Shown: positions 12,081 to 50,350 of the stretch, piece by piece
How positions within the stretch are numbered: the first letter of the stretch is position 1
Layout of the letters: every line of letters starts with the position of its first letter
NCBI RefSeq assembly: GCF_013315695.1
Contig: NZ_CP054353.1
Source: Escherichia coli
GTDB taxonomy: Bacteria; Pseudomonadota; Gammaproteobacteria; Enterobacterales; Enterobacteriaceae
Strand: one strand, 5' to 3'
Length of the DNA: 64,000 bases
The notes under the pieces: model-generated
The model's input: only the letters and a program-made list of their open reading frames with translations
Told to the model about the DNA's origin: nothing
Databases searched by the model: none
Made by a program: the position numbers and the translations under genes

Positions 12081-13121
12081 ATGCAATATCACCGTATACC
12101 CCACAGTTCGCTGGAAGTCAGCACGCTGGGGCTTGGCACGATGACGTTTGGTGAACAGAACAGCGAAGCCGACGCCCACGCACAACTCGACTATGCCGTC
12201 GCTCAGGGCATTAACCTTATCGATGTTGCCGAAATGTACCCAGTACCTCCGCGCCCCGAAACGCAAGGGCTAACCGAAACCTACGTCGGCAACTGGCTGG
12301 CGAAACATGGCAGCCGCGAAAAGTTAATTATCGCCTCCAAAGTGAGCGGACCGTCGCGCAATAATGACAAAGGCATCCGCCCGGATCAGGCGCTGGATCG
12401 GAAGAATATCCGCGAAGCGCTGCATGACAGCCTCAAGCGTCTGCAGACTGATTACCTCGATCTCTATCAGGTGCACTGGCCGCAGCGTCCAACCAACTGC
12501 TTCGGCAAACTCGGTTATAGCTGGACAGATTCTGCGCCTGCGGTTTCGCTGCTGGATACGCTGGACGCACTGGCAGAGTACCAACGCGCGGGAAAAATTC
12601 GTTATATCGGCGTGTCGAACGAAACTGCATTTGGCGTAATGCGCTACCTGCATCTGGCGGACAAACACGATCTGCCGCGTATTGTCACCATTCAGAACCC
12701 CTACAGCCTGTTAAACCGCAGTTTTGAAGTAGGTCTGGCAGAAGTCAGCCAGTATGAAGGGGTCGAACTGCTGGCCTATTCGTGCCTGGGTTTCGGCACA
12801 CTGACCGGGAAATATCTCAATGGTGCAAAACCCGCTGGCGCACGTAATACGCTCTTTAGTCGGTTCACCCGCTATAGCGGTGAGCAAACGCAAAAAGCCG
12901 TCGCGGCGTATGTTGATATCGCCAGACGTCATGGCCTGGACCCTGCTCAGATGGCGCTCGCATTTGTACGCCGTCAACCGTTTGTTGCCAGCACTCTGCT
13001 GGGCGCAACCACGATGGAGCAGTTGAAAACTAACGTCGAAAGTTTGCATCTGGAGTTGAGCGAAGACGTATTAGCTGAAATTGAAGCGGTGCATCAGGTT
13101 TACACTTATCCGGCACCATAA
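12081..13121 (+). CDS. tas: NADP(H)-dependent aldo-keto reductase Tas
   Basis: 346-aa ORF with aldo-keto reductase features; synteny. Confidence 0.95.
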   Translation: MQYHRIPHSSLEVSTLGLGTMTFGEQNSEADAHAQLDYAVAQGINLIDVAEMYPVPPRPETQGLTETYVGNWLAKHGSREKLIIASKVSGPSRNNDKGIRPDQALDRKNIREALHDSLKRLQTDYLDLYQVHWPQRPTNCFGKLGYSWTDSAPAVSLLDTLDALAEYQRAGKIRYIGVSNETAFGVMRYLHLADKHDLPRIVTIQNPYSLLNRSFEVGLAEVSQYEGVELLAYSCLGFGTLTGKYLNGAKPAGARNTLFSRFTRYSGEQTQKAVAAYVDIARRHGLDPAQMALAFVRRQPFVASTLLGATTMEQLKTNVESLHLELSEDVLAEIEAVHQVYTYPAP

Positions 13122-13152
13122 GATTAACGCCGGTTAAAACCGGCGTTAAATA
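13122..13152. terminator. GC-rich hairpin between convergent tas and lplT (putative bidirectional terminator)
   Basis: Inverted repeat aacgccggtt / aaccggcgtt at 13126-13147. Confidence 0.5.
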
Positions 13153-16519
<3,367 letters not shown>

Positions 16520-23772: not shown

Positions 23773-24609
23773 CTAGCGCAAATCTTTAACGGCCACATGG
23801 TCCATATCATCAAAGACCTGGTTTTCACCGACCATGCCCCAGATAAAGGTATAAGCTTTGGTTCCGACGCCGGAATGGATCGACCAGCTCGGGGAGATCA
23901 CCGCCTGCTCGTTATGCATCACAATGTGACGCGTTTCTTGCGGCTGCCCCATCATGTGGAAAACGCAGGCGTCATCATCCATATTGAAATAGAAATAAAC
24001 TTCCATCCGGCGCTCGTGGGTGTGACACGGCATGGTGTTCCACAAGTTACCCGGAGCCAGCTCCGTCAGCCCCATACTCAATTGGCAGGTTTCCAGCACA
24101 TCCGGGACAAAATATTTGTTAATCGTGCGACGGTTGCTGGTGAGGTTATCGCCTAACGTGACTGGAGATACTTCGTCCGGTGTGACTTTTTTGGTGGGAT
24201 ACGTCGTATGCGCGGGTGCGCAATTGTAATAAAACTTCGCCGGAGTGGCGGTATCAATACTGGCAAAGACAACTTCTTTTGCACCTTTACCAACATACAG
24301 GGCGTCGCGGTGACCGATTTCATAGCATTGACCATCGACAGTAATCGTACCGGCACCGCCAATATTGATAACACCTAACTCGCGACGTTCCAGGAAATAG
24401 CTTACCCCGAGTTGTTTACCAACTTCCCCGCCAACGGAAACCGTTTTAGTTACCGGCATAATGCCGCCAACAATAATACGGTCAATGTGGCTGTAAACCA
24501 TGGTGTACTCATCGGCGACAAATACCTTTTCAACCAAAAATTCATTGCGCAACCCCTGGGTATCCAGCGTTTTTGCATGCGCACTGTGGATGCTCTGTCT
24601 TACGTCCAC
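23773..24609 (-). CDS. kduI: 5-dehydro-4-deoxy-D-glucuronate isomerase
   Basis: 278-aa ORF upstream of kduD; KduI-like cupin. Confidence 0.93.
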
Positions 24610-24895
24610 ATCAACCTCCGATAATCAGTAAAGCGTGAAAATAGAAAACGATAGTGAAACGCTGTTTCGTTTTCTCTATAAGGGGATGATATGCCCACGG
24701 GATAGGGTTTTCAATTAAAAATAAAACAATGTTTCATTTTTAAGGTAAGGACTGAAAAAAGTGCAGTGTCGATCACGAATATGTCATGAGAATGGAAAAA
24801 TCAGGGAGCCCTGAAAATGTATGTCGACTCGCCAGCCACCATTATTCAACAGATTAATGACGGCTGATATTTATCGGTAAGGAGGAAATGCAGAG

Positions 24896-26080
24896 CTATT
24901 CGTCACGTTCAATGGTCAATGCCACGCCCTGGCCCCCGCCGATACAAAGCGTAGCCAGTCCTTTGCGGGCATTACGTTTCACCATTTCATGAACCAGAGA
25001 AACCAGGATTCGGCAACCGGACGCGCCTATTGGGTGACCGAGCGCGATCGCACCACCATTAACATTGACCCGACGCTCATCCCATTCAAGCATCTTGCCA
25101 ACCGAAAGCGCCTGAGCAGCAAACGCTTCATTAGCCTCAATAAGATCGACATCAGCCAACTGCCAGCCGACACGTTCCAGGCAACGGCGTGTCGCATACA
25201 CCGGCGCAATTCCCATTAATGCCGGATCTACACCAACGCTGGCAAATGCGCGAATGCGGGCAAGCACGGGTAAATTCAACGCTCGCGCTTTGGCTTCGCT
25301 CATCATCATTACCGCAGCTGCGCCATCGTTTATGGATGATGCATTACCCGCTGTCACAGAACCGAGACTATCAAATGAAGGATTTAAACGGGCCAAGCCT
25401 TCTGCACTGGCGTCAGTGCGTGGCTGTTCATCGGTATCAACAACCAACGCCTGACCGTTACTTTGGGCCATTACCGGGACGATTTCATCTTTAAATCGTC
25501 CGGCGTCAATCGCCGCTCGCGCTTTTTGTTGCGAGCTAAGTGCGTAAGCATCCTGCAACTGACGGCTGATGCCATATTCGCGAGCCAGATTTTCGGCGGT
25601 GACACCAATATGATAATCATTGAAGGCATCCCACAAGCCGTCATGCACCAGACTATCAACCAACTGGCTATTGCCAAGCTGTGCACCGGTGCGGCTATCA
25701 GTCAGAACATGTGGTGCGCGACTCATGTTTTCCTGACCACCGGCGATGACAATATCAGCCTCGCCACACTGTATCGCCTGAGTAGCCAGATGCAGTGCTT
25801 TAAGCCCGGAACCACAAACGTCATTAATAGTGATTGCAGAAACGCTATTAGGAAGACCACCTTTAATAGCCGATTGCCTTGCCGGATTCTGCCCTGCCCC
25901 TGCAGTCAACACCTGACCAAGAATTACTTCATCCACCGCATATGCAGGAACGCCGGTACGTTCTATTAACGCTTTCACGACCAGACTACCAAGTTCCACA
26001 GCGGAATGACCCGCTAACGCACCACGAAAGCAGCCGATAGGTGTCCGTAACGCCCCGACAATCACAACGTCTTTCATCAC
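24896..26080 (-). CDS. yqeF: acetyl-CoA C-acetyltransferase (thiolase II)
   Basis: 394-aa thiolase ORF (MKDVVIVGALRTPIG...). Confidence 0.93.
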   Translation of the reverse strand: MMKDVVIVGALRTPIGCFRGALAGHSAVELGSLVVKALIERTGVPAYAVDEVILGQVLTAGAGQNPARQSAIKGGLPNSVSAITINDVCGSGLKALHLATQAIQCGEADIVIAGGQENMSRAPHVLTDSRTGAQLGNSQLVDSLVHDGLWDAFNDYHIGVTAENLAREYGISRQLQDAYALSSQQKARAAIDAGRFKDEIVPVMAQSNGQALVVDTDEQPRTDASAEGLARLNPSFDSLGSVTAGNASSINDGAAAVMMMSEAKARALNLPVLARIRAFASVGVDPALMGIAPVYATRRCLERVGWQLADVDLIEANEAFAAQALSVGKMLEWDERRVNVNGGAIALGHPIGASGCRILVSLVHEMVKRNARKGLATLCIGGGQGVALTIERDE

Positions 26081-26331
26081 AACCTCGCACCAATTAACAG
26101 TGCAATAGTAAATGATTGTTAATTACAGTTATCTTAATTGTTTAAAAAAAGTGACTATTATCACAAAGGAAATACGCCTGAGTAGCAGTCAGAGACATAA
26201 CTGGCACGTAAGGTTTGCAACCACTAACCCACCAATAGAGGGGTAGAAAGGGCGTTAATCTCCCATACTTAACCTGGTTTATGGTAAATTGCCCTCCATT
26301 TTGTTTAATTTGTAGATGATACGTTCAGATA

Positions 26332-37287: not shown

Positions 37288-38022
37288 CTACTTATTTTTT
37301 AACCTGATTAAATTAGTTAGAATAGCCCTGTACTTCCATAACAGCCAGCAAGTCGCAATGGACATTAATGCAAGTAAGATAGAAACCGGCATAGTCTTAT
37401 CATAAGCAAAAATAGGTTCGTTAATTTCATATGTTGGTGCTTGTTCAATAATATCTCTTCGTTTTGACAATACGACTGAAATATTCTCATATTGTACGCT
37501 TGCAAAGCTATTAACAATAAATCTCTTAATGTCATTTATTTTTATTTCTGGATTGATATCTTTTTCATATACAGCAAGTACAGAAATATGAATTGGTAAA
37601 GCAGTTTTGCCACTATCACCTGTATCAACATCGTAACTAACATGTACTCTTGAAGAAACAATGCCATCCATAATTTTGAGAGATTGCTCCAAACGCTGTT
37701 CAATAGCAGAATACAATCTTGCTTTTTCCGCTCGTGGAGAGGAAACGAGTGCATCTGCAGGAAACATCTGCGATATTTGAATATCAGGCTTACCCGGGAG
37801 ATTGTAGATTTTTAGCCAATCCACCGCAGAAGCAAAATCCGTTGGTTCTACATAGATTGAAAATCCAATTTTGCCTTGATCCTTCTTCTCAGCATTAATA
37901 TTATGTCTTTGTAAAACAGCAAGGACATCATTAGCTTGCTGTTGATCAAGATGGTTCAGTAATTCCTGCTGCTTGCAACCGCACAACAGCAGGATAAACA
38001 AGAATAATGATATATATTTCAT
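37288..38022 (-). CDS. eprK: T3SS inner-membrane ring lipoprotein (PrgK/EscJ/SctJ family)
   Basis: 244-aa ORF with lipoprotein signal (FILLLCGCKQ), SctJ-like periplasmic region and C-terminal TM anchor. Confidence 0.8.
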   Translation of the reverse strand: MKYISLFLFILLLCGCKQQELLNHLDQQQANDVLAVLQRHNINAEKKDQGKIGFSIYVEPTDFASAVDWLKIYNLPGKPDIQISQMFPADALVSSPRAEKARLYSAIEQRLEQSLKIMDGIVSSRVHVSYDVDTGDSGKTALPIHISVLAVYEKDINPEIKINDIKRFIVNSFASVQYENISVVLSKRRDIIEQAPTYEINEPIFAYDKTMPVSILLALMSIATCWLLWKYRAILTNLIRLKNK

Positions 38023-38351
38023 GAGCGAGTCAACGTCTCAACTGCAGCGACAATTTTTCTTGCTAATGTTCCCACCAATGAAACCTCGACATTATAATTA
38101 AGCACATGATCCTGCAAGACTAATAATTTTTCAGGAGTTAACCCCTTTTTATCAGACCTTAATGCTTGTAACGCATTTTGCTGCCAATTTTCAGTTTGTA
38201 CCGCATAGTTAGCAAAAGCGGAGATCATTTTATCATCCGGGTTATCAAGATTGAGAACCCGGTCATTTAAATCAATAACTTTCGCTTGCTGTATTTCATG
38301 AGCAGCTGATTGCTCAGCTCTATCAATAGGTGGCATATTGCTTACTGACAT
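38019..38351 (-). CDS. eprJ: T3SS inner rod protein (PrgJ/SctI-like)
   Basis: Small ORF between the needle and SctJ genes; track ORF trimmed to MSVSNMPPID. Confidence 0.6.
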   Translation of the reverse strand: MSVSNMPPIDRAEQSAAHEIQQAKVIDLNDRVLNLDNPDDKMISAFANYAVQTENWQQNALQALRSDKKGLTPEKLLVLQDHVLNYNVEVSLVGTLARKIVAAVETLTRS

Positions 38352-38370
38352 AATAAAATCCTTATCCAGT

Positions 38371-38610
38371 TTAGCGGAAGTTTTGTATGATTGCCGAATC
38401 AAGATCTTTATACGCTTTTACAACGTTAGATTGCGCATTTCGATATAATGTATACTCAGCTAATGCACTCTGATATTCGGCAAGGAATTTCGGGTCGGAA
38501 GGATTGGTTGCTAAATCCTCCAACGCTTTTTCAACTTGCTGGTTCAGATCATCAACGCCCTGATCAAATTGTTTGCTGATATCCATAATATAACCATTCC
38601 AATCTGCCAT
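38371..38610 (-). CDS. eprI: T3SS needle filament protein (PrgI/MxiH/SctF family)
   Basis: 79-aa ORF whose C-terminus (YRNAQSNVVKAYKDLDSAIIQNFR) closely matches the needle-protein C-terminus of Salmonella PrgI. Confidence 0.85.
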   Translation of the reverse strand: MADWNGYIMDISKQFDQGVDDLNQQVEKALEDLATNPSDPKFLAEYQSALAEYTLYRNAQSNVVKAYKDLDSAIIQNFR

Positions 38611-38657
38611 AAGTCCTCCTCAATTATTCCTGAAATGTCCACTTGCTACCTTGAGAC

Positions 38658-39425
38658 GGTGATGCTGCCAACTTACTGATTTAGTGTATGATGGTGTTTT
38701 TGAGGTGCTCCAGTGGCTTCTGTTTCTATCAGCTGTCCCTCCTGTTCAGCTACTGACGGGGTGGTGCGTAACGGCAAAAGCACCGCCGGACATCAGCGCT
38801 ATCTCTGCTCTCACTGCCGTAAAACATGGCAACTGCAGTTCACTTACACCGCTTCTCAACCCGGTACGCACCAGAAAATCATTGATATGGCCATGAATGG
38901 CGTTGGATGCCGGGCAACAGCCCGCATTATGGGCGTTGGCCTCAACACGATTTTACGTCACTTAAAAAACTCAGGCCGCAGTCGGTAACCTCGCGCATAC
39001 AGCCGGGCAGTGACGTCATCGTCTGCGCGGAAATGGACGAACAGTGGGGCTATGTCGGGGCTAAATCGCGCCAGCGCTGGCTGTTTTACGCGTATGACAG
39101 GCTCCGGAAGACGGTTGTTGCGCACGTATTCGGTGAACGCACTATGGCGACGCTGGGGCGTCTTATGAGCCTGCTGTCACCCTTTGACGTGGTGATATGG
39201 ATGACGGATGGCTGGCCGCTGTATGAATCCCGCCTGAAGGGAAAGCTGCACGTAATCAGCAAGCGATATACGCAGCGAATTGAGCGGCATAACCTGAATC
39301 TGAGGCAGCACCTGGCACGGCTGGGACGGAAGTCGCTGTCGTTCTCAAAATCGGTGGAGCTGCATGACAAAGTCATCGGGCATTATCTGAACATAAAACA
39401 CTATCAATAAGTTGGAGTCATTACC
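38658..39425 (+). mobile_element. insAB: IS1 insertion sequence, copy A (768 bp; insA 38713-38988, insB 38907-39410)
   Basis: Terminal inverted repeats ggtgatgctgccaacttactgat ... atcaataagttggagtcattacc; InsA (91 aa) and overlapping InsB (167 aa) frames. Confidence 0.97.
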
Positions 39426-39907
39426 GACTTAATGTTATCCCGATAACTCTTCCACCGCTGCGTGAACGTCAGGAAGATATTGAATTACTGGTGCATTACT
39501 TTTTACATCTGCATACCCGTCGTCTGGGATCGGTTTATCCTGGCATTGCTCCGGATGTCGTCGAAATATTGCGTAAGCATCGTTGGCCCGGAAACCTGCG
39601 CGAGTTAAGCAATTTGATGGAATATCTGGTTAACGTGGTTCCTTCAGGTGAAGTTATCGACAGCACGCTATTGCCACCAAATCTGCTGAATAATGGCACA
39701 ACGGAGCAAAGTGATGTAACAGAGGTCAGTGAGGCGCACCTGTCACTCGATGATGCGGGCGGCACGGCGCTGGAGGAGATGGAAAAGCAAATGATCCGCG
39801 AGGCGCTTTCACGTCATAACAGCAAGAAGGAAGTTGCTGATGAACTGGGCATCGGCATTGCTACGCTCTATCGCAAGATTAAGAAATATGAGTTGTTAAA
39901 CACATAA
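39426..39907 (+). pseudogene. ygeV: 3-prime fragment of sigma-54-dependent activator gene ygeV, truncated by IS1
   Basis: The frame is open from the first base after IS1 (LNVIPITLPPLRERQEDIELLVHYFLHLH...), encoding only the end of the AAA+ domain and the C-terminal Fis-type HTH; no N-terminal domain is present. Confidence 0.8.
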
Positions 39908-39946
39908 CCTCAGTGAATCCGGTCTGAATTCAGGCCGGATATCCTT

Positions 39947-40426
39947 TTACTTCGTTTTCTCGCAATCCAGAACTGTATTTACAATCATCTGATACCCCGT
40001 GCAGCGACAAAGATTTCCCGCCAGTCCGCGACGAATTTCCGTAATGGTTAATGGCTTCTCGCGTGGTTTCGCCAGCATTGCCGTGGTAGCCATAATCAGG
40101 CCAGGCGTACAAAACCCGCACTGCACTGCGCCGGATTTCGCATAAGCCTGCTGAACATGAGAAAGTTTTCCGCCTTTCGCTTCACCTTCAAGCGTGCGGA
40201 TCTCTTTTCCTTCAGCCCAGGCGGCAAGGTATAAGCAACTGTCTATTGCTGTGCCGTCGACCAGCACCGTACAGGCACCACATTCACCCACGCAGCACCC
40301 TTGTTTGACACTTAGCAGTCCTTGTTCGCGGAGTAATTCCGAGAGCGGCGTGCCTGGTGCGGCATGAAGCTGAAAAGGCATCCCGTTAATGGTGCATTCG
40401 ATGGTAATTGTTTCGCTGTGATTCAT
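39947..40426 (-). CDS. xdhC: xanthine dehydrogenase Fe-S subunit (2Fe-2S ferredoxin-like)
   Basis: 159-aa ORF with two [2Fe-2S] cysteine clusters ([11 protein letters not shown] and CGFCTPG). Confidence 0.9.
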
Positions 40427-41301
40427 TGCAATTTTCCCCCCGCCGCGGCGACGGCTTCGCTAATCACTTTTTTGGTCATCGTCTGGATGAGATGCAGACG
40501 AAACTCTTTACTGGCCCGCCATGAAGAACGCGGGGCGACATCTTGCAGGACAGATTCGCTGATAGCTTCCAGCGTTTGCAGGTTTAATGGCGCATTTTGT
40601 GCAGTCTGTTCGGCATGTTGGCAGCGAATCGGCGTTGGCGCGGCAACACCAAATGCCAGGCGTAATTCGCTGAAATTGCCGTTATCCAGTCGGCAATGTG
40701 CGGCACAGCCAATCGTTGAAATATCCATTGCGTCGCGCATGGCATATTTAAAATGCGCGCTGCCCGCGTGTTCTTTCGGCTGGGGCGGAAAATGAAAGGC
40801 GACAAGGATTTCGTCATGCTCAAGAGACACTTTGCCCGGCCCAGTGTGAAAGCCATTAATCGGGACGAAACGAACACCGCGCGGGGAGTGAATCTCCAGT
40901 GTCGCGTCATAAATTAGCGTTGGCGTGGCAGAATCTGCGCTGGTAGCACCGTTGCAAATATTTCCACCGTAGGTAGCGACGTTACGGATCTGCGGTCCGG
41001 CAATGGACGAGGCCGCAGCACATAACGCTGGGAGATGACGTTGAGTTACAGGATCTTCAATGAGCTGGGTAAATGTCGTTGCAGAGCCGATACGTAGTGA
41101 GCCATCTTCCGCCAGCGTAATTCCCCGCAGCTCCGCCAGATTATGAATATCAACAATATGGCGATAACGGTCATTGTGATGGTGGAGCTGAATCAGTACG
41201 TCAGTGCCACCGGCGAGCAGTTTGGCCTGCGGGTTGTCAGCCAGCAGGTTGATGGCATCGGCAAGGGTTGCTGCGCGATGGTAAGAAGCAAAATCAAACA
41301 T
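40423..41301 (-). CDS. xdhB: xanthine dehydrogenase FAD-binding subunit
   Basis: 292-aa ORF with CO dehydrogenase flavoprotein-like sequence; overlaps xdhC by 4 nt. Confidence 0.9.
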
Positions 41302-41311
41302 GATGTTATCC

Positions 41312-43570
41312 TCAAATCAATCCTGCCAGATGGAACTCTTCATATAACCGTTTTGGCGTCAGCGGCAGTGTATTGATTGCAACACCGGTAGCCATCTTCA
41401 CCGCGTTACGAATAGCAGCGGCAACAGGAATTATTGGTGGCTCACCCAGTGACTTATGTCCGTATGCGGATTGCGGCTCATTGATTTCGACGAACGCGCT
41501 TTCCAGTTGTGGCAGATCCGGCATGGTCGGCATTTTGTAATCCAGCAGATTGGGGTTACGGACCACGCCGCTTTTCGCATCGATGATCATCTCTTCAAAT
41601 AGCGCCCAGCCAATGCCCATTCCCATTCCGCCGTGTACCTGACCTTCTGCCAGCAGCGGATTTAGAATATGCCCCGAATCATGAACGTTGAGGATGCGGT
41701 TGATGGTGACTTTGCACAGTGCAATATCGACCGTCAGATCAACAAAGGTACAGCCGAACGCCGGTGGGTTAGTGGTGGTTTTGATGGAGCTTTCAGCAGA
41801 GAGCTGCCCGCCGCGTTCAGGGTGGTAGAAAGCGTCCATCGCCAAATCTTTTAACGACATTAACGGTTCTTCCGGTCGTTCAATCAGCACGATATGGCCT
41901 TTTATCAGGGTCAGATTCATCGCTGACTGATGTAGCATGACTGCGGCGTGAGCGATGATTTTCTCTTTTAATAACAGTGCCGCACTGCGCAGCGCAGGCG
42001 CGGCAACATAGCTCTGGCGTGAGGCAAATGCGCCGGGATCGAACGGCGTAACATCGGTATCTTGTGTTGAAATAACGCGAACGTCGCTGACCGGAACCCC
42101 CACGGTTTCTGCCACCATTTGCGAGAAGACGGTGTCGGCACCCTGACCGATTTCCGTCGCGCCGCTTTGCACGTTGATGGTTCCATCCTGATTCATCAGA
42201 AGGCGCGCGCCTGCTATTTCTACGCCGACAGGCCAGGTGTTCGAGGTGTAGCTAAAACAGGCGACGCCAACGCCGCGGCGTAAATTGCCTTTCTGGTTCT
42301 GGCACTCTGCACGGCGTTTTTCCCATTCAAAGATTTTCCGGCCTTTTTCAAGACACTCCGGCAACCCTGCGCTGTAAATACGTTTGCCCGTGAGCGGATT
42401 AGCATCTCCTTCGCGGGCGGCGTTGCGTAAACGAATTTCAACAGGATCAATACCTAACGCTGTCGCGGCGTCATCAAGCATAGACTCAACGGCAAATACG
42501 ACTTGTGGCGCGCCATAACCACGCATCGCACCAGCTGAGGGGAGGTTGGTATAGCAGGTCTTTGAACTGTAAGCGTAGGCACAACGAGGATAAAGGTAAG
42601 CGACTTTATTCCCCCCCGCAGAAGCGATGGAGTGCCCGTGAGATGCGTAAGCGCCGGTGTTAGACAGAACATCCAGACTATAACCTTTCAATGTTCCGTC
42701 GCGGTTCACGCCCATTTGCCCGTCAATAGTAAAAGCGTGGCGGGTACGGGTTGCGAGGAAACACTCTTCACGGCTAAGGGAAACTTTCATCGGAATGCCG
42801 CCAAGCTTGCTGGTCAGGAATGCCGCCATTGGCTCTTCCAGTACATCCTGTTTATTACCAAAACCGCCACCGACAAACGGTTTGATGACTCGTACGCATG
42901 ACCAGGGAATATTCAGCGCCTGACCAACCACACGGCGAACAATGTGTGGGATCTGGGTGCTGGAAACGATGGTAATTCGCGAGTCATCCTCCATCCATGC
43001 CAGCGATGTCACGCTTTCCATGTGACAATGTTGAATGACCGGCGTCTGATAGTGCCCCTGTACCTGGTAGTCGGCGGCATCGATTGTTTGTTGGACATTG
43101 CCCGTCGACATCGTGCTTTGTTTTAGTAAATTGCCGCCGTTATGGATTGGTTCAGCGTCATCAGCCAGCGCCGCTTCTGGGGTGGTGATAACGGGTAATT
43201 CTTGCCACTCAATGCTGACCAATTGCGCCGCTTTTTCTGCCGTGAGTTCATCACGGGCCACGACGATGGCAACGGCGTCACCATGGTGACGAACATGGCG
43301 AGTTAGCAGTGCGCGATCGGCGGTATCGCGCTTGTTTTCGTCAAGTGTCCAGGCATGCCCAGCTGTAGCGAATGGGATATCAGGCACATCTTCCCAGGTA
43401 AAAATCGCCAGTACGCCCGGTAAACTTCTGGCTTGTTCATCATTAATACTTACGGCATAACCATGTGCGATAGGGCTACGTACATATTTCGCGTAACACA
43501 TGCCCGCCATAACATAATCGTCAGTATATCGTGCCCGCCCGGTGACCTTAGCAATGGCATCTACGCGCAT
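41312..43570 (-). CDS. xdhA: xanthine dehydrogenase molybdopterin-binding subunit
   Basis: Track ORF trimmed to MRVDAIAKVTGRARYTDD..., 752 aa, aldehyde oxidase/xanthine dehydrogenase family. Confidence 0.92.
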   Translation of the reverse strand: MRVDAIAKVTGRARYTDDYVMAGMCYAKYVRSPIAHGYAVSINDEQARSLPGVLAIFTWEDVPDIPFATAGHAWTLDENKRDTADRALLTRHVRHHGDAVAIVVARDELTAEKAAQLVSIEWQELPVITTPEAALADDAEPIHNGGNLLKQSTMSTGNVQQTIDAADYQVQGHYQTPVIQHCHMESVTSLAWMEDDSRITIVSSTQIPHIVRRVVGQALNIPWSCVRVIKPFVGGGFGNKQDVLEEPMAAFLTSKLGGIPMKVSLSREECFLATRTRHAFTIDGQMGVNRDGTLKGYSLDVLSNTGAYASHGHSIASAGGNKVAYLYPRCAYAYSSKTCYTNLPSAGAMRGYGAPQVVFAVESMLDDAATALGIDPVEIRLRNAAREGDANPLTGKRIYSAGLPECLEKGRKIFEWEKRRAECQNQKGNLRRGVGVACFSYTSNTWPVGVEIAGARLLMNQDGTINVQSGATEIGQGADTVFSQMVAETVGVPVSDVRVISTQDTDVTPFDPGAFASRQSYVAAPALRSAALLLKEKIIAHAAVMLHQSAMNLTLIKGHIVLIERPEEPLMSLKDLAMDAFYHPERGGQLSAESSIKTTTNPPAFGCTFVDLTVDIALCKVTINRILNVHDSGHILNPLLAEGQVHGGMGMGIGWALFEEMIIDAKSGVVRNPNLLDYKMPTMPDLPQLESAFVEINEPQSAYGHKSLGEPPIIPVAAAIRNAVKMATGVAINTLPLTPKRLYEEFHLAGLI

Positions 43571-44024
43571 GCATGATTCACCTGTAGCGGTTGCTTCCCG
43601 CGCTTCCATAGAAATCCCCTCGATTTGAACATTTGGTTCTTATGGCAAAGATTTAGTCTAAGCAGGCAAGATTTACGCCAGAAACGACGATAAGCGTTAA
43701 GGGAGGAAGGAAGTGTGATGATGTTAAAAAAACACAGATATGATACGAAACAGGACCCTGAATAGGGGCAGTGATACGTATCAATATCAGTGGCGATAAA
43801 ATCAATGTGATAAATTGGGATTATTACGCATCAGGATGGGAAATAGGGTAAATGAGTCAGGAAATTCGATACCTCTACAGTGAATATTTTGCTGATGATA
43901 CTTCCCTTTGCCAAATGAAATTAACCTCTTTCTCTATTACCGCGTTTTTCCAGAAGCAAGAGATTGGGTATCAAGAGGCTGGCTGCTATGATATGGCGTC
44001 TTGTTTTTTAAGCGAGGAAAGATT

Positions 44025-44777
44025 TTGAGTGCGGGACGCCTGAATAAAAAATCTCTGGGTATCGTGATGTTGTTATCGGTTGGACTGCTTTTGGCGGGCT
44101 GCTCGGGTAGCAAATCATCCGATACAGGAACGTATTCCGGCTCCGTTTACACCGTGAAACGGGGGGATACGCTATATCGTATTTCGCGCACCACGGGAAC
44201 CAGCGTAAAAGAGCTGGCGCGACTGAACGGCATTTCCCCCCCTTACACCATTGAAGTTGGTCAGAAACTAAAACTGGGTGGGGCGAAAAGTAGCAGTACA
44301 CGTAAATCAACCGCCAAATCAACGACCAAAACCGCATCGGTTACACCGTCATCAGCAGTACCGAAATCTTCCTGGCCGCCAGTAGGGCAACGTTGTTGGT
44401 TATGGCCAACGACAGGGAAAGTTATCATGCCGTATTCGACAGCTGATGGCGGCAATAAAGGGATTGATATCTCAGCTCCACGGGGTACACCTATTTACGC
44501 TGCGGGTGCAGGAAAGGTGGTGTATGTGGGCAACCAGCTGCGTGGCTACGGTAATCTCATCATGATTAAACACAGTGAAGATTACATTACGGCTTACGCC
44601 CATAATGACACGATGCTGGTAAATAATGGGCAAAGCGTGAAGGCTGGGCAAAAAATCGCCACTATGGGGAGCACTGATGCGGCATCTGTTCGCCTGCATT
44701 TCCAGATTCGTTACCGTGCAACGGCAATTGATCCGCTACGTTACTTGCCGCCTCAGGGCAGCAAGCCAAAATGCTGA
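44025..44777 (+). CDS. ygeR: LysM + M23 peptidase-family lipoprotein
   Basis: Probable TTG start at 44025 preceded by gaggaaag; lipobox LLLAGCSG, LysM domain (YTVKRGDTLYRISRTTG) and M23/LytM-like C-terminus. Confidence 0.85.
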   Translation: MSAGRLNKKSLGIVMLLSVGLLLAGCSGSKSSDTGTYSGSVYTVKRGDTLYRISRTTGTSVKELARLNGISPPYTIEVGQKLKLGGAKSSSTRKSTAKSTTKTASVTPSSAVPKSSWPPVGQRCWLWPTTGKVIMPYSTADGGNKGIDISAPRGTPIYAAGAGKVVYVGNQLRGYGNLIMIKHSEDYITAYAHNDTMLVNNGQSVKAGQKIATMGSTDAASVRLHFQIRYRATAIDPLRYLPPQGSKPKC

Positions 44778-44855
44778 TGGCGAATTAATCAGCAGTCAGC
44801 AGCGCGGCACTTGCTAAGGAGAGCGTAAGGTTTATAATGCCTTACGCATCTCGAA

Positions 44856-44929
44856 GCGGGCGTAGTTCAATGGTAGAACGAGAGCTTCCCAAGCTCTATA
44901 CGAGGGTTCGATTCCCTTCGCCCGCTCCA
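44856..44929 (+). tRNA. glyU: tRNA-Gly (anticodon CCC)
   Basis: 74-nt cloverleaf gcgggcgtagttcaatggtagaacgagagcttcccaagctctatacgagggttcgattcccttcgcccgctcca; anticodon loop ttCCCaa; 3-prime CCA encoded. Confidence 0.95.
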
Positions 44930-45162
44930 ATTTATCTTCACCTCATCAATCTGCCATTTTTGCTGTATCTGATTTTCTATATTATCTTAATTCAATCGCT
45001 TCAGACTTTTCGCAATCGCTGTAACACTTCCCCATTTTTTTGTAAATAAAAAGCGTTTACGCAATGCAATCCTTTTGTAACAACCCAGGTAAAATACCTT
45101 ATTTTCAAGTTGTTAAATAAGTGGTTATCTACGCTTTTAACAAACGATTGATGGAATCTTTT

Positions 45163-46608
45163 ATGAAAGGGAAATCTACATTAACTCTTCTGCTCGCTGG
45201 TATATTTTCGTACGGCACATGCCAGGCGGCAGGGGCAGAAGTGACGAGTGAATCTGTATTTAACATTCTTAATTCCACGGGGGCAGCAACTGATAAAAGT
45301 TATTTATCGTTAAATCCAGATAAGTATCCTAATTATCGTCTTCTGATTCACTCAGCCAAATTAAAAAATGAAATAAAGAGCCACTATACCAAAGACGAAA
45401 TTCAAGGATTGTTAACATTAACAGAAAATACACGAAAGTTAACGTTGACGGAGAAACCCTGGGGAACATTTATTCTTGCTTCTACTTTCGAAGATGACAA
45501 AACAGCGGCAGAAACCCACTATGATGCTGTCTGGCTGAGGGATAGTTTATGGGGCTATATGGCATTAGTATCAGATCAGGGAAATAGTGTAGCCGCAAAA
45601 AAGGTTCTGCTCACTCTGTGGGAATATATGTCTACGCCCGACCAGATTAAGCGGATGCAGGACGTCATTAGCAACCCAAAACGACTGGATGGTATTCCTG
45701 GGCAAATGAATGCTGTACATATCCGATTTGACAGCAACTCCCCCGTGATGGCAGATGTGCAGGAAGAAGGCAAGCCGCAGCTGTGGAACCATAAACAAAA
45801 TGATGCGTTAGGTCTTTATCTTGATCTCCTTATACAAGCAATCGACACTGGTACTATTAACGCTGAAGATTGGCAAAAAGGTGACCGATTAAAATCGGTT
45901 GCGCTGCTGATTGCTTATCTGGATAAAGCCAATTTCTATGTTATGGAAGATTCCGGAGCGTGGGAGGAAGATGCCCGATTAAACACATCTTCCGTTGCAC
46001 TGGTGACCTCTGGACTGGAACGTTTGTCAAACCTACTCTCGAAGAAAGACTCTGTTTTTGTCTCTGATTTACTACGCGAAGCTAAAGCCAATGAACTGGA
46101 TGAACCACTTTCAACAACGAGGTTGAACCACCTCATAGATAAAGGTTATGAAAGAATAACGCTACAGCTTGATTTAGGGGGAGAATCTCCTGGTTATCTG
46201 GAAAAAGATAAACATTACAGAGAAGCCGATGCGGCTTTACTTAATGTTATTTATCCTGCAAATCTTTCAAAGATAAACACCAGAAGAAAAGAGCAAGTTC
46301 TAAAAATAGTTAAAAAACTAGCAGGTCCGTATGGTATAAAAAGATACGAGAAGGATAATTATCAGTCGGCAAATTTTTGGTTCAATGATATTAAAACCGA
46401 TACCGATCAAAATTCACATGCGAAAAGAGAAATGAGCTTCATTCCATCAACAGAAGCAGAATGGTTTTTTGACTCATGGTATGCAAAATCAGCAGCAATT
46501 GTTTATAAAGAATCAAGAAAAGAAGAGTATTTGAATGACTCAGTGCAATTTATGAATAGATCATTGGCCCAAATAACAGGCGAGAAGGTAATGACTCCAA
46601 CTTATTGA
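45163..46608 (+). CDS. glycoside hydrolase family 15 (glucoamylase-like) lipoprotein, ygeQ-like; 3-prime end runs into IS1
   Basis: Long ORF with signal peptide/lipobox ([16 protein letters not shown]) and GH15-like motif (DAVWLRDS); the last ~7 codons and the stop are supplied by IS1 sequence starting at 46587, so the native C-terminus is missing; start codon uncertain (45121-45163). Confidence 0.6.
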
Positions 46609-47354
46609 TAGTGTTTTATGTTCAGATAATGCCCGATGACTTTGTCATGCAGCTCCACCGATTTTGAGAACGACAGCGACTTCCGTCCCAGCCGTGCCAG
46701 GTGCTGCCTCAGATTCAGGTTATGCCGCTCAATTCGCTGCGTATATCGCTTGCTGATTACGTGCAGCTTTCCCTTCAGGCGGGATTCATACAGCGGCCAG
46801 CCATCCGTCATCCATATCACCACGTCAAAGGGTGACAGCAGGCTCATAAGACGCCCCAGCGTCGCCATAGTGCGTTCACCGAATACGTGCGCAACAACCG
46901 TCTTCCGGAGCCTGTCATACGCGTAAAACAGCCAGCGCTGGCGCGATTTAGCCCCGACATAGCCCCACTGTTCGTCCATTTCCGCGCAGACGATGACGTC
47001 ACTGCCCGGCTGTATGCGCGAGGTTACCGACTGCGGCCTGAGTTTTTTAAGTGACGTAAAATCGTGTTGAGGCCAACGCCCATAATGCGGGCTGTTGCCC
47101 GGCATCCAACGCCATTCATGGCCATATCAATGATTTTCTGGTGCGTACCGGGTTGAGAAGCGGTGTAAGTGAACTGCAGTTGCCATGTTTTACGGCAGTG
47201 AGAGCAGAGATAGCGCTGATGTCCGGCGGTGCTTTTGCCGTTACGCACCACCCCGTCAGTAGCTGAACAGGAGGGACAGCTGATAGAAACAGAAGCCACT
47301 GGAGCACCTCAAAAACACCATCATACACTAAATCAGTAAGTTGGCAGCATCACC
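46587..47354 (-). mobile_element. insAB: IS1 insertion sequence, copy B (768 bp; insA 47024-47299, insB 46602-47105), inverted relative to copy A
   Basis: InsA and InsB ORFs identical in protein sequence to copy A but on the minus strand; terminal inverted repeats at 46587 and 47354. Confidence 0.97.
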
Positions 47355-47992
47355 CGATGGGGATGTTCCTGGCACTGGGTGAAATAGTCGGTCGTAAACT
47401 CTCTTCACACGATATTATTCGCGGGCTGCGTGTCGATGGCGTAGGGACAATGATAGGCGGAACGTTTAACAGCTTCCCCCACACGTCATTTTCACAAAAC
47501 GTTGGCCTGGTTAGCGTGACGCGCGTTCATAGCCGCTGGGTGTGTATTTCTTCGGGAATTATATTAATCCTGTTTGGCATGGTGCCAAAAATGGCGGTGC
47601 TGGTCGCCTCCATTCCGCAATTTGTGCTGGGCGGTGCTGGGCTGGTGATGTTCGGCATGGTACTGGCGACAGGGATTCGAATTCTGTCGCGCTGTAACTA
47701 CACCACCAACCGTTACAACCTCTATATTGTGGCGATCAGTCTCGGCGTTGGCATGACTCCGACGCTCTCTCACGATTTCTTTTCTAAGTTACCGGCCGTA
47801 CTGCAACCGTTGCTGCATAGCGGCATTATGCTCGCAACCCTTAGCGCCGTTGTGCTGAACGTCTTCTTTAATGGCTATCAGCATCATGCTGATCTGGTGA
47901 AGGAATCCGTCTCTGATAAAGATTTAAAAGTCAGGACAGTACGTATGTGGCTTCTGATGCGCAAGCTGAAGAAAAATGAGCATGGAGAATAA
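47355..47992 (+). pseudogene. ygfU: 3-prime fragment of nucleobase:cation symporter gene (ygfU/uacT-like), truncated by IS1
   Basis: Frame opens directly at the IS1 boundary and encodes only the C-terminal ~210 residues (several TM helices) of an NCS2-family permease; N-terminal part absent. Confidence 0.75.
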
Positions 47993-47993
47993 T

Positions 47994-48119
47994 ATGAATC
48001 TTTTAATGCGCGCTATATTCAGTCTGCTGTTGCTTTTTACTCTCTCTATTCCTGTCATTTCTGACTGTGTTGCAATGGCCATTGAAAGTCGCTTCAAATA
48101 TATGATGCTGCTTTTTTAA
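47994..48119 (+). CDS. candidate 41-aa hydrophobic small protein
   Basis: ATG 2 nt after the ygfU stop; MNLLMRAIFSLLLLFTLSIPVISDCVAMAIESRFKYMMLLF; not in the ORF track (below 60 aa). Speculative. Confidence 0.3.
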   Translation: MNLLMRAIFSLLLLFTLSIPVISDCVAMAIESRFKYMMLLF

Positions 48120-48241
48120 ATGGTTTTTACCTGTCGACATCCGCTCAAAACGGGCGGTTGTCGATAAACGCTCACTTGGTTAATCATTTCACTCTTCAAT
48201 TATCTATAATGATGAGTGATTAGAATTACATGTGAGAAATT

Positions 48242-48790
48242 ATGCAAACGGAACACGTCATTTTATTGAATGCACAGGGAGTTCCCACGGGTACGCTGGA
48301 AAAGTATGCCGCACACACGGCAGACACTCTCTTACATCTCGCGTTCTCCAGTTGGCTGTTTAATGCCAAAGGGCAATTATTAGTTACCCGCCGCGCCCTT
48401 AGCAAAAAAGCGTGGCCTGGCGTGTGGACTAACTCGGTTTGTGGGCACCCACAACTGGGAGAAAGCAACGAAGACGCGGTGATCCGCCGTTGCCGTTATG
48501 AGCTTGGCGTGGAAATTACGCCTCCTGAATCTATCTATCCTGACTTCTACTATCGCGCCACCGATCCGAATGGCATTGTGGAAAATGAAGTGTGTCCGGT
48601 ATTTGCCGCACGCACCACCAGTGCGTTACAGATCAACGATGATGAAGTGATGGATTATCAATGGTGTGATTTAGCAGATGTATTACACGGTATTGATGCC
48701 ACGCCGTGGGCGTTCAGTCCGTGGATGGTGATGCAGGCAGCCAATAGTGAAGCAAGAAAATTGTTGTCTGCTTTCGCGCAGCACAATTAA
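48242..48790 (+). CDS. idi: isopentenyl-diphosphate delta-isomerase (type I, Nudix-like)
   Basis: 182-aa ORF beginning [41 protein letters not shown]. Confidence 0.95.
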
Positions 48791-48816
48791 AAAACCCCGA
48801 CATTTGCCGGGGTTGT
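48789..48816 (-). terminator. rho-independent terminator of lysS (hairpin shared with the idi 3-prime end)
   Basis: Hairpin ccccg-acatttgc-cgggg preceded on the plus strand by aaaaa (U-tract for the minus-strand transcript). Confidence 0.7.
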
Positions 48817-48832
48817 GAGCATAACGTAATGC

Positions 48833-50350
48833 TTATTTCACCGGACGCATCGCCGGGAACAGAATAACGTCGCGGATGGTATGGCTGTTGGTGAACAGCA
48901 TTACCATACGGTCGATACCAATTCCCAGACCTGCTGTCGGCGGTAAGCCATGTTCCAGTGCGGTGACGTAATCTTCATCGTAGAACATCGCTTCGTCGTC
49001 ACCTGCATCTTTCGCGGCAACCTGATCCAGGAAGCGCTGCGCCTGATCTTCCGCGTCATTCAGTTCGCTAAAGCCGTTACCGATTTCACGACCACCGATA
49101 AAGAACTCAAAGCGGTCTGTGATTTCCGGGTTAACGTCGTTACGACGCGCCAGCGGAGAAACTTCTGCCGGATATTCAGTAATGAAGGTCGGCTGAATCA
49201 GATGTGCTTCTGCCACTTCTTCGAAGATCTCGGTAACGATACGGCCCAGACCCCAGCTCTTCTCAACGTGGATGCCGATAGATTCAGCAATCGCTTTCGC
49301 AGAGTCGAAGTTGTCCAGATCCGCCATGTCGGTTTCCGGGCGATATTTCTTGATCGCTTCACGCATGGTCAGTTTTTCGAACGGTTTACCGAAGTCCAGC
49401 GTTACGTCGCCGTAGGTCACTTCCGTCTTACCGAGAATATCCTGTGCCAGAGTACGGAACAGCGATTCGGTCAGCTCGATCAGATCTTTGTAATCTGCGT
49501 AAGCCATATAGAGTTCCATCATGGTGAACTCTGGGTTATGACGTACGGAAATACCTTCGTTACGGAAGTTACGGTTGATTTCGAATACACGCTCGAAGCC
49601 ACCGACCACCAGACGCTTGAGGTACAGTTCCGGCGCGATACGCAGGTACATGTCGAGATCCAGCGCGTTATGGTGAGTGATAAACGGACGCGCAGCGGCA
49701 CCGCCAGGGATCACCTGCATCATCGGCGTTTCAACTTCCATAAAGCCGCGGTTCACCATGAACTGGCGAATACCAGAGAGGATCTGCGAGCGCACTTTAA
49801 AGGTGTTGCGGGATTCATCGTTAGAGATGAGATCCAGATAACGCTGACGATAGCGCGCTTCCTGATCCTGCAAGCCGTGGAATTTATCCGGCAGCGGACG
49901 CAGTGCTTTGGTCAGCAGACGCAGCTCGGTACAGTGGATAGACAGTTCGCCGGTTTTGGTTTTGAACAGTTTACCTTTCGCGCCGAGGATGTCACCAAGG
50001 TCCCATTTTTTGAATTGATCGTTATAAACGCCTTCCGGCAGATCGTCACGGGCAACGTACAGCTGAATGCGACCGCCAACGTCCTGCAGGGTAACGAAAG
50101 ACGCTTTACCCATAATACGACGGGTCATCATGCGGCCAGCAACGGCGACTTCGATGTTCAGCGCTTCCAGTTCTTCGTTCTCTTTGCCGTCGAATTCTGC
50201 GTGCAATTGGTCAGAGGTATGATCGCGACGGAAATCGTTCGGGAAGGCAATCCCCTGCTCGCGCAGGTTCGCCAGCTTCTCACGACGCGTTTTCAGTTCA
50301 TTGTTAAGATCGACTACCGCGTCAGCGCCCTGTGCGTTTTGTTCAGACAT
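48833..50350 (-). CDS. lysS: lysyl-tRNA synthetase (constitutive)
   Basis: 505-aa class II aaRS ORF ([33 protein letters not shown]...). Confidence 0.97.

Follow-up and report, generated by a model that had tools for sequence, protein, structure and literature searches.

Probable stepwise IS1-driven decay around an inverted xdh-glyU segment in one clone of Escherichia coli

Introduction

How does a chromosomal segment come to lie reversed between two copies of the same insertion sequence, with large parts of its neighbourhood missing on both sides? The question is raised by a 64,000-nucleotide stretch of Escherichia coli DNA from contig NZ_CP054353.1 (hereafter the window, to which coordinates refer unless stated otherwise), in which xdhCBA and glyU are enclosed by two IS1 elements. 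Intramolecular replicative transposition of IS1 produces inversions as well as deletions next to the element, as known from the classical gal deletions and from later work on intramolecular rearrangements, and mutational attrition of the ETT2 type III secretion cluster at glyU in E. coli is widely reported. An earlier reading made from the letters of the window (the sequence-only reading) had attributed the arrangement to intramolecular IS1 transposition giving an inversion plus adjacent deletion. Our analysis indicates that the locus very probably records not one event but a stepwise, IS1-driven decay of the region of ETT2, xdh and purine catabolism within a single clone of E. coli rich in IS1, because three sister genomes differ by IS1-adjacent deletions and simple insertions.

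Results

The window contains a single inverted repeat, whose arms (38658-39425 and 46587-47354) are 768 nt each, 100% complementary and separated by 7,161 nt. The left arm is a 768-bp IS1 copy of the IS1A type on the + strand (38658..39425), with IRL towards the remains of eprH and IRR towards those of ygeV. The right copy (46587..47354, - strand) is 100% identical to it, with IRR towards a truncated glycoside hydrolase family 15 (GH15) gene and IRL towards the remains of uacT. The termini are the canonical inverted repeats of IS1 (IRL GGTGATGCTGCC..., IRR GGTAATGACTCC...), and the element has the expected length of ~768 bp and imperfect ~23-bp repeats (GGTGATGCTGCCAACTTACTGAT / GGTAATGACTCCAACTTATTGAT) that match at 18 of 23 positions. 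The IS1 transposase profile NCBIfam NF033558 is fully covered, by a 91-aa ORF at profile positions 1-81 and a 167-aa ORF at 75-199 of 199. An A6C motif (AAAAAAC) at IS1 nt 307 fits the -1 frameshift of insA/insB', and the RefSeq label on the identical sequence is IS1A family transposase with programmed frameshift. No further IS1 copies were found in the window. The fully complementary arms bear out the earlier description of two complete, oppositely oriented 768-bp IS1 copies around a ~7.2-kb segment.

Comparison by BLAST with K-12 MG1655 (locus L004) shows how this segment is placed. The kduI to ygeO part, window 24485-37089, runs collinear with K-12 on the + strand. Next comes window 39422-44942, which corresponds to L004 20494 down to 14972, inverted (ygeV 3' end, xdhCBA, actS/ygeR and glyU), and window 45016-46299 to L004 14976 down to 13693, likewise inverted (ygeQ). 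The + strand resumes at window 47357-49076, which corresponds to L004 48181-49901 (uacT 3' end and idi). From these strands it follows that, measured against idi-lysS, xdhABC and glyU have been turned round. The sequence-only reading had given the K-12 orientation correctly: MG1655 carries xdhABC opposite to the window, relative to idi. The inversion is seen equally against the IS-free strain 266917_2. The ancestral order is ETT2 (eprH to eivC/sctN to eivF), a ghoT-like gene, GH15, glyU, actS, xdhABC, ygeV, ygeW to ygfT, uacT and idi.

The segment is bordered by IRR on either side. Its orientation therefore comes from the assemblies rather than from junction sequence, and short reads are unable to establish it, a lesson for assembly that holds for any segment between inverted IS copies. 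The inner junctions read as IRR joined to unique sequence and are identical in either arrangement, and reads shorter than 768 bp cannot orient what lies between them. The orientation might thus be an assembly artefact, the real chromosome carrying two simple IS1-adjacent deletions around a segment in its native orientation. We consider this very unlikely: the window is contiguous across both IS1 copies, and the same orientation is found in two independently deposited circular complete genomes (Australia and United Kingdom), each with at least 40 IS1-matching places, where closure would have needed IS1-spanning reads.

Inside the segment, xdhC (39947-40426), xdhB (40423-41301) and xdhA (41312-43609) lie on the - strand, intact and inverted relative to idi. 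The gene actS (ygeR; 44025..44777, + strand) is also intact and inverted, and glyU, encoding tRNA-Gly(CCC), is inverted at 44856..44929 (+ strand). The GH15 gene (45163..46608, + strand), the full-length form of K-12 ygeQ, has had ~214 bp of its 3' end removed by IS1; the breakpoint corresponds to L008 13236, inside the GH15 coding sequence (13022-14671), and the frame runs into the right IS1, where it meets a stop codon.

At the edges, two genes survive as remnants. The ygeV remnant (39426..39910, + strand), identified by BLAST to K-12 ygeV and by translation, comprises the C-terminal 160 codons and the stop (frame 39428-39910). Its match to sigma-54 activator profiles is confined to their last ~150, C-terminal positions; the sensor domain is gone, as is most of the AAA+ domain. 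The uacT (ygfU) remnant (47355..47992, + strand) retains the C-terminal 211 codons (47357-47992) and matches only positions 237-407 of the 407 in a xanthine permease profile. The truncation of both genes had been read correctly from the sequence, since the last 160 and 211 codons remain and are cut exactly at the IS1 ends, but each frame starts with the third base beyond IS1 and not, as had been stated, with the first.

The loss of ygeV bears on the regulation of xdhABC. A sigma-54 promoter upstream of xdhABC has been reported, and YgeV is a putative activator of these genes, a role inferred from co-expression (PMC10602906). In the window, a sigma-54-like -24/-12 motif spotted by eye, and such by resemblance only (tGGcgtaaatcttGCc; 43665..43681, - strand), lies ~55 nt upstream of xdhA; a strict scan for the sigma-54 consensus with one mismatch allowed did not list it. 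With this motif kept and the putative activator gene destroyed, xdhABC is orphaned from its presumed activator, as the sequence-only reading had anticipated.

Between the two remnants, a large block is missing. BLAST finds nothing in the window that matches K-12 L004 20495-48180, an interval of 27.7 kb with 17 complete genes from ygeW to ygfT, and across the entire chromosomes of two sister genomes, MSB1_4I and AF3, probes for ygeX, ygfK, xdhD and guaD gave no hit. The suspected absence of ~17 genes between ygeV and ygfU is thereby confirmed, and the probe results on the sister chromosomes indicate that this DNA is truly deleted. The strain has lost transporters for xanthine, guanine and urate together with guanine deaminase, and the deleted set includes genes for anaerobic uric-acid breakdown.

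On its outer side the left IS1 adjoins the final ~34 bp of eprH, a gene of ETT2 (PrgH/EprH family; 38624..38657, - strand) that is not normally found beside ygeV. This implies a second deletion, of ~15 kb, on the ETT2 side, which the sequence-only reading had overlooked, as it had the truncated GH15 gene. Part of it can be followed in MSB1_4I, where window 34997-38657 corresponds to L001 1-3660 and window 38658 onward to L001 12001 onward, with the eprH coding sequence at L001 3627-4808. L001 3661-12000 of MSB1_4I is missing from the window, an 8,340-bp deletion that ends at the first base of IS1 and leaves the element in place. It has the form of an IS1-adjacent deletion, which starts exactly at the IS end, retains the IS and has a variable far endpoint. 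The eprH|IS1 junction of the window was not among the best-ranked matches in 5,426 complete genomes. Overall, the losses amount to ~27.5 kb of genes for the catabolism of purines and uric acid and ~15 kb of ETT2, about 43 kb on the two sides of the flipped segment, and the 7.2-kb stretch from the ygeV remnant through xdhCBA, actS and glyU to the truncated GH15 gene is inverted. Nor does the strain retain a functional ETT2 apparatus.

Two intact inverted IS1 copies around 7.2 kb formally constitute a composite transposon, and a Tn1681-like unit running from the ygeV remnant to the GH15 remnant could in principle have moved as a whole into its present site. We regard this as extremely improbable. 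The segment sits at its native locus between native neighbours, the outer flanks (ETT2 and uacT) are not adjacent in any intact genome, no direct 9-bp duplication lies outside the two copies, and no true plasmid or second chromosomal site carries the segment. Full-length matches in a plasmid collection were only records of 4.8-4.9 Mb, which are mislabelled chromosomes, and a mobilised transposon was rejected.

The sister genomes resolve some of the steps. MSB1_4I is 100% identical to the window over 38658-64000 in one block, and shows 5 mismatches over window 1-35235. AF3 has the same junction of IS1 with the uacT remnant as the window, and keeps 610 bp more beside the right IS1, comprising the GH15 3' end and a ghoT-like gene; the corresponding 610-bp deletion into GH15 is common to MSB1_4I and the window. 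Of these three near-identical genomes, only the window shows the 8,340-bp loss that runs into eprH from IRL of the left IS1; a separate deletion, private to AF3, starts at IRR of the left IS1 there and reaches into the sequence upstream of xdhA. Simple IS1 insertions with 9-bp target duplications (TCTGGATAA, TGATTTTGT) are present in GH15 (AF3) and in eivJ (AF3 and MSB1_4I), showing that IS1 is active in the clone. All IS1 copies at these loci, in the window and both sisters, are identical. With several IS1 events within 50 kb, the three genomes form a small, clean series on the speed at which an IS1-rich clone erodes a locus.

Junction probes were run against the 5,426 complete genomes. The uacT junction is shared only by MSB1_4I and AF3, and the ygeV junction only by MSB1_4I and the unrelated HCP17S3_I4; no un-inverted relative of the clone with IS1 in ygeV or uacT was present in this set.

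Discussion

Which events produced the arrangement? The routes that we constructed from one IS1 need at least four (insertion, inversion and two deletions), and the window carries two further deletions. In the most economical, four-step route, IS1 would first have entered ygeV, its IRR pointing to the 3' end of that gene; an adjacent deletion from the IRL end would then have taken 27.5 kb, from the 5' part of ygeV through that of uacT. The segment from the ygeV remnant to sctN would then have been inverted between two opposite IS1 copies, either by replicative intramolecular transposition into sctN or by RecA recombination with a second inverted IS1. Finally, an adjacent deletion at the IRR end of the uacT-side copy would have taken the sctN 5' part through eivF (6.9 kb). 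This order of events is what we infer, and its inversion step may be of either kind. The later steps come from comparison of the three genomes: the 610-bp GH15 deletion, and then the 8,340-bp eprH deletion.

The target sites offer no further discrimination. Neither IS1 copy in the window has a direct 8-9 bp target duplication, as expected for rearranged copies. A fresh IS1 inversion product is expected to show a reciprocal inverted 9-bp pattern, and the sequence-only reading had looked to the four IS1 ends for it, but the 9-mers in the window (CCTTGAGAC, GACTTAATG, AGGCGAGAA and CGATGGGGA) contain no reciprocal pair, and neither do the earlier flanks that MSB1_4I and AF3 retain. Such a pattern would have disappeared when later deletions removed the partner sites, so its absence weighs for neither origin.

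The inversion may also have had no transposition behind it. Two independent IS1 events (the ygeV-uacT deletion, and a sctN-eivF deletion by an opposite IS1) could have been followed by a RecA-mediated flip of the segment, which may still flip. We rate this as quite conceivable, somewhat short of an even chance. Other strains commonly carry deletions that leave a uacT remnant, IS1 and a ygeV remnant without inversion and with the same IS1 orientation. Within the clone, IS1 often inserts or deletes adjacent DNA (five differences among three near-identical genomes), the inverted 768-bp copies are 100% identical, and, with no reciprocal target duplication, nothing favours a single transposition event. 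Against this, the route requires five events rather than four, and the shared orientation in all three sister genomes means that flipping is not rapid. The two origins of the inversion are inseparable by sequence alone. Of the mechanism first proposed, the IS1-bounded inversion with deletions stands; its transposition component does not have exclusive support, as a RecA flip gives the same sequence.

The four-step route and its later deletions agree with classical IS1 rearrangements in that deletions start exactly at an IS1 end with the IS1 retained, and that an inverted segment lies between opposite, identical IS1 copies with no direct target duplication. The window differs in carrying several superimposed deletions and no single-event signature. 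It likewise resembles ETT2 attrition elsewhere in E. coli, with a partial deletion and IS at the breakpoints beside glyU; the K-12 remnant is itself IS-rich, with IS2 in ygeO/ygeP. The window stands apart in that its ETT2 deletion is coupled both to the glyU-xdh inversion and, beyond the segment, to a missing purine cluster. Titles and abstracts on ETT2, IS1, glyU and inversion gave no apparent description of this rearrangement. It is ordinary IS-driven genome decay, textbook in mechanism and lineage-specific as an instance, and it leaves the established picture of IS1 unchanged.

Loss of the purine cluster recurs. In six comparison strains (ETEC1717, XJW9B277, strain 61, H3, PSS-10 and HCP17S3_I4), as in the window, IS1 lies at the deletion junction and ygeW to ygfT are wholly or partly lost, and in four of the six the IS1 IRR faces the ygeV 3' remnant, again as in the window. 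The breakpoints differ from those of the window, except for the ygeV junction of HCP17S3_I4, and the segment is inverted in none of the six. ETEC1717, XJW9B277 and strain 61 carry the uacT remnant, IS1 and ygeV remnant in the same IS1 orientation without inversion, which is a precursor-type structure. The IRR|ygeV junction of HCP17S3_I4 is identical to that of the window on a background diverged by 1.6%. Common descent of this junction was rejected as the simplest reading because that divergence over the segment equals the one seen against K-12, and because sequence differences in the flank begin 25 bp away from the junction.

In E. coli, IS1-associated deletions of the ygeV-uacT region arose independently at least seven times, with breakpoints that differ, and ygfK-ssnA is missing from 4.4% of complete genomes. 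We think it unlikely, but worth stating, that this urate and purine cluster is a recurrent target of IS1-mediated loss, which could reflect a sequence-specific IS1 hotspot in ygeV, where the joining base is identical in two backgrounds 1.6% diverged, or selection in some gut niches. If so, the window would be one case in which anaerobic urate degradation has been lost convergently and possibly adaptively.

The IS-free strain 266917_2 shows 100% identity over uacT-idi-lysS, only 98.5% in the xdh segment and 94.6-97% in ETT2. Divergence in the latter two regions led us to reject it as an ancestor or close relative of the clone; it serves as an IS-free reference for gene order.

An inverted segment between two IS1 copies

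A repeat search over 36000-50000 returned a single inverted pair, whose 768-nt arms (38658-39425 and, inverted relative to it, 46587-47354) are 100% complementary and lie 7,161 nt apart. This bears out the two complete, oppositely oriented 768-bp IS1 copies described in a sequence-only reading of the window, in which no further IS1 was found. Both copies end in canonical IS1 terminal repeats, with 18 of 23 positions shared between the two ends, and in both the right terminal inverted repeat (IRR) is the inner end. Against the 199-position NCBIfam IS1 transposase profile, the 91-aa ORF covers positions 1-81 and the 167-aa ORF positions 75-199. An A6C frameshift motif is present at nt 307 of IS1, and the RefSeq label on identical sequence is IS1A-family transposase.

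The surroundings were compared with K-12 MG1655 by BLAST. The window is collinear with K-12 on the plus strand from recC to ygeO (1-37089), and returns to the plus strand from 47357 onward, with the last 636 bp of uacT (ygfU) followed by idi and lysS. Between the IS1 copies, 39422-44942 matches K-12 in reverse (the 3' 486 bp of ygeV, then xdhC, xdhB, xdhA, actS/ygeR and glyU), as does 45016-46299 (ygeQ), confirming that the segment with xdhABC, ygeR and glyU is inverted relative to K-12. ARAGORN places glyU, a tRNA-Gly(CCC), at 44856-44929 on the plus strand. With the direction of replication taken from K-12, glyU, xdhABC and actS have been turned around, and glyU would now lie head-on to the replication fork.

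Because both inner ends are IRR, flipping the segment would leave the junction sequences unchanged, and its orientation is therefore beyond the reach of short reads. The inverted order is agreed by the contiguous window and by two independent circular complete genomes, each with at least 40 IS1-matching places and, we infer, closed with IS1-spanning reads. We consider mis-orientation very improbable. A composite transposon was ruled out, as there is no flanking duplication and the segment sits at its native locus and on no true plasmid. Three PLSDB plasmid-collection records of 4.8-4.9 Mb (H169-H171) are evidently misfiled E. coli chromosomes.

Losses of native DNA

The 27,686 bp that separate the ygeV and uacT breakpoints in K-12 have no BLAST match in the window. 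They hold the 5' parts of both genes plus 17 whole genes (ygeW, ygeX, ygeY, hyuA, yqeA, yqeB, yqeC, mocA, ygfK, ssnA, ygfM, xdhD, xanQ, guaD, ghxQ, ygfS and ygfT), in agreement with the earlier estimate of roughly 17 missing genes. The C-terminal remnants of ygeV and ygfU, put at about 160 and 210 codons in that reading, amount on translation to 160 and 211, and each matches just the C-terminal part of its own family profile. A chimeric probe was assembled from a 2 kb window anchor (uacT'-idi-lysS) and four 600-bp K-12 pieces of ygeX, ygfK, xdhD and guaD. In ordinary genomes it matches six places, namely the anchor, the four pieces and lysU, which has 84% identity over 524 bp to the lysS part of the anchor. 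In the chromosomes of the near-identical sister genomes MSB1_4I and AF3 it matches just two, and none of the four pieces was found. With these chromosomes as a proxy for the window's own genome, the missing purine genes appear to have been deleted, not moved.

The sequence-only account was largely right but incomplete, in that it missed a glycoside hydrolase gene, the eprH flank and a second loss on the side of ETT2, a type III secretion cluster. The glycoside hydrolase family 15 (GH15) gene inside the segment (45163-46608) has had its 3' end removed by IS1, and its stop codon lies inside the element. Outside the left IS1 lies the end of an ETT2 gene, the last ~34 bp of eprH, and not purine-cluster DNA. 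Mapping the breakpoints onto two standard-order genomes, PEC1020 and the IS-free 266917_2, gives an ETT2-side loss of about 15.1 kb, which takes the 3' end of GH15, a ghoT-like gene, eivF, eivG, eivE, eivA, eivC/sctN, eivI, eivJ, the epa genes and almost the whole of eprH. Just the left-hand regulatory and basal-body genes of ETT2 remain.

ETT2 attrition is well known. A junction probe (38558-38657, eprH 3' end/eprI) was matched over at least 80% of its length by 36 complete genomes. In all eight genomes examined, an IS1 sits in eprH no more than a few hundred bp away, though not where the window has its own, and so ETT2, too, looks like a frequent IS1 target.

Sister genomes and the order of events

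None of the complete E. coli genomes holds the whole structure. MSB1_4I, from a human rectal swab in Australia, matches 38658-64000 at 100% identity in one block and has 5 mismatches to 1-35235. Its sole structural difference is an extra 8,340 bp that runs exactly up to base 1 of the left IS1, which there adjoins the last ~229 bp of sctN. The loss of these 8,340 bp from the window is a classical IS1-adjacent deletion, and very recent. AF3 (blood culture, UK) shares the IS1-'uacT and sctN'-IS1 junctions, and in both sister genomes a further IS1 with a 9-bp duplication lies in eivJ. Three differences set AF3 apart. Next to the right IS1 it retains another 610 bp, comprising the GH15 3' end and the ghoT-like gene; its GH15 carries an additional IS1, again with a 9-bp duplication; and a deletion private to AF3 starts at the left IS1, from its IRR end, and extends through ygeV'-xdhCBA. 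A split between AF3 and the pair of MSB1_4I and the window is implied, from a common ancestor that would have read sctN'-IS1-ygeV'-xdhCBA-actS-glyU-GH15-ghoT-IS1(inverted)-'uacT. The inverted arrangement is limited to one clone, and most of it is already in a public genome.

The AF3-specific deletion ends exactly at the site equivalent to window 43810-43828, native DNA upstream of xdhA (ATAAATTGGGATTATTAC) that resembles the terminal ~19 nt of the IS1 IRR (ATAAGTTGGAGTCATTACC). Old reports describe IS1 targets as resembling IS1 ends, which this site fits.

Four ancestral breakpoints were defined: p1 in sctN, p2 between eivF and the ghoT-like gene, p3 in ygeV and p4 in uacT. The order in the ancestor of the three strains is DNA up to p1, IS1, p3 to p2 inverted, the second IS1, and DNA from p4. 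Starting from one IS1, every route we constructed takes at least four events: an insertion, an inversion that yields a second, oppositely oriented copy, and two adjacent deletions. Our preferred start would be an IS1 in ygeV whose IRR pointed to the 3' end of that gene, followed by a deletion from this IS1 to uacT. The resulting uacT'-IS1-ygeV', uninverted and in the same IS1 orientation, exists in other strains, and an unrelated pig isolate, HCP17S3_I4, has IS1 joined to ygeV at exactly the same base.

The inversion may then have come from intramolecular transposition of the replicative type, with sctN as the target; RecA recombination with an inverted IS1 that had inserted independently would serve equally well, as both routes leave the same sequence. 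The sequence-only account is right on the IS1-bounded inversion and the adjacent purine-cluster deletion, but was too specific as to mechanism. The reciprocal 9-bp target-site pattern it had put forward as a check was not found at the IS1 ends; this absence weighs neither way, because the partner sites lay in DNA later deleted. We regard a general IS1-driven account of the window as highly probable, and within it lean only slightly towards a transposition-type inversion over a RecA flip.

Recurrence in other E. coli

IS1-mediated adjacent deletion and inversion are textbook processes. The window's rearrangement is real, a fresh instance of IS1-driven decay of a known kind. Purine-cluster loss is not rare: of 5,426 complete genomes, 241 (4.4%) lack a match to a ygfK-ssnA probe. 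Independent deletions associated with IS1, each with its own breakpoints, are seen in at least seven cases: the window's clone, ETEC1717, XJW9B277, strain 61, H3, PSS-10 and HCP17S3_I4. Related loci in unrelated E. coli (L005, from HCP17S3_I4, and L006, L011, L014, L015 and L016) have lost all or part of ygeW to ygfT in IS1-associated deletions whose breakpoints differ, and simple IS1 insertions also occur in uacT. This recurrence may stem from selection, or simply from the target preference of IS1.

The junction of the IS1 IRR with ygeV (window 39422-39434; L005 12097-12110) is base-identical in the window's clone and HCP17S3_I4, although the latter is unrelated, has no inversion, differs by 1.6% and carries a SNP 25 bp away. 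At the break, the native ygeV sequence is TACC, as are the final 4 nt of IS1. This favours a candidate target hotspot for IS1 over common ancestry.

YgeV is a predicted sigma-54 activator whose putative regulon includes xdhABC, ygeWXY and ygfT (PMC10602906). Its reduction to a remnant leaves xdhABC without this presumed activator, as had been anticipated, and because of that loss xdhABC is probably silent or poorly induced. The genes themselves are intact, and a -24/-12-like motif is kept ~55 nt upstream.
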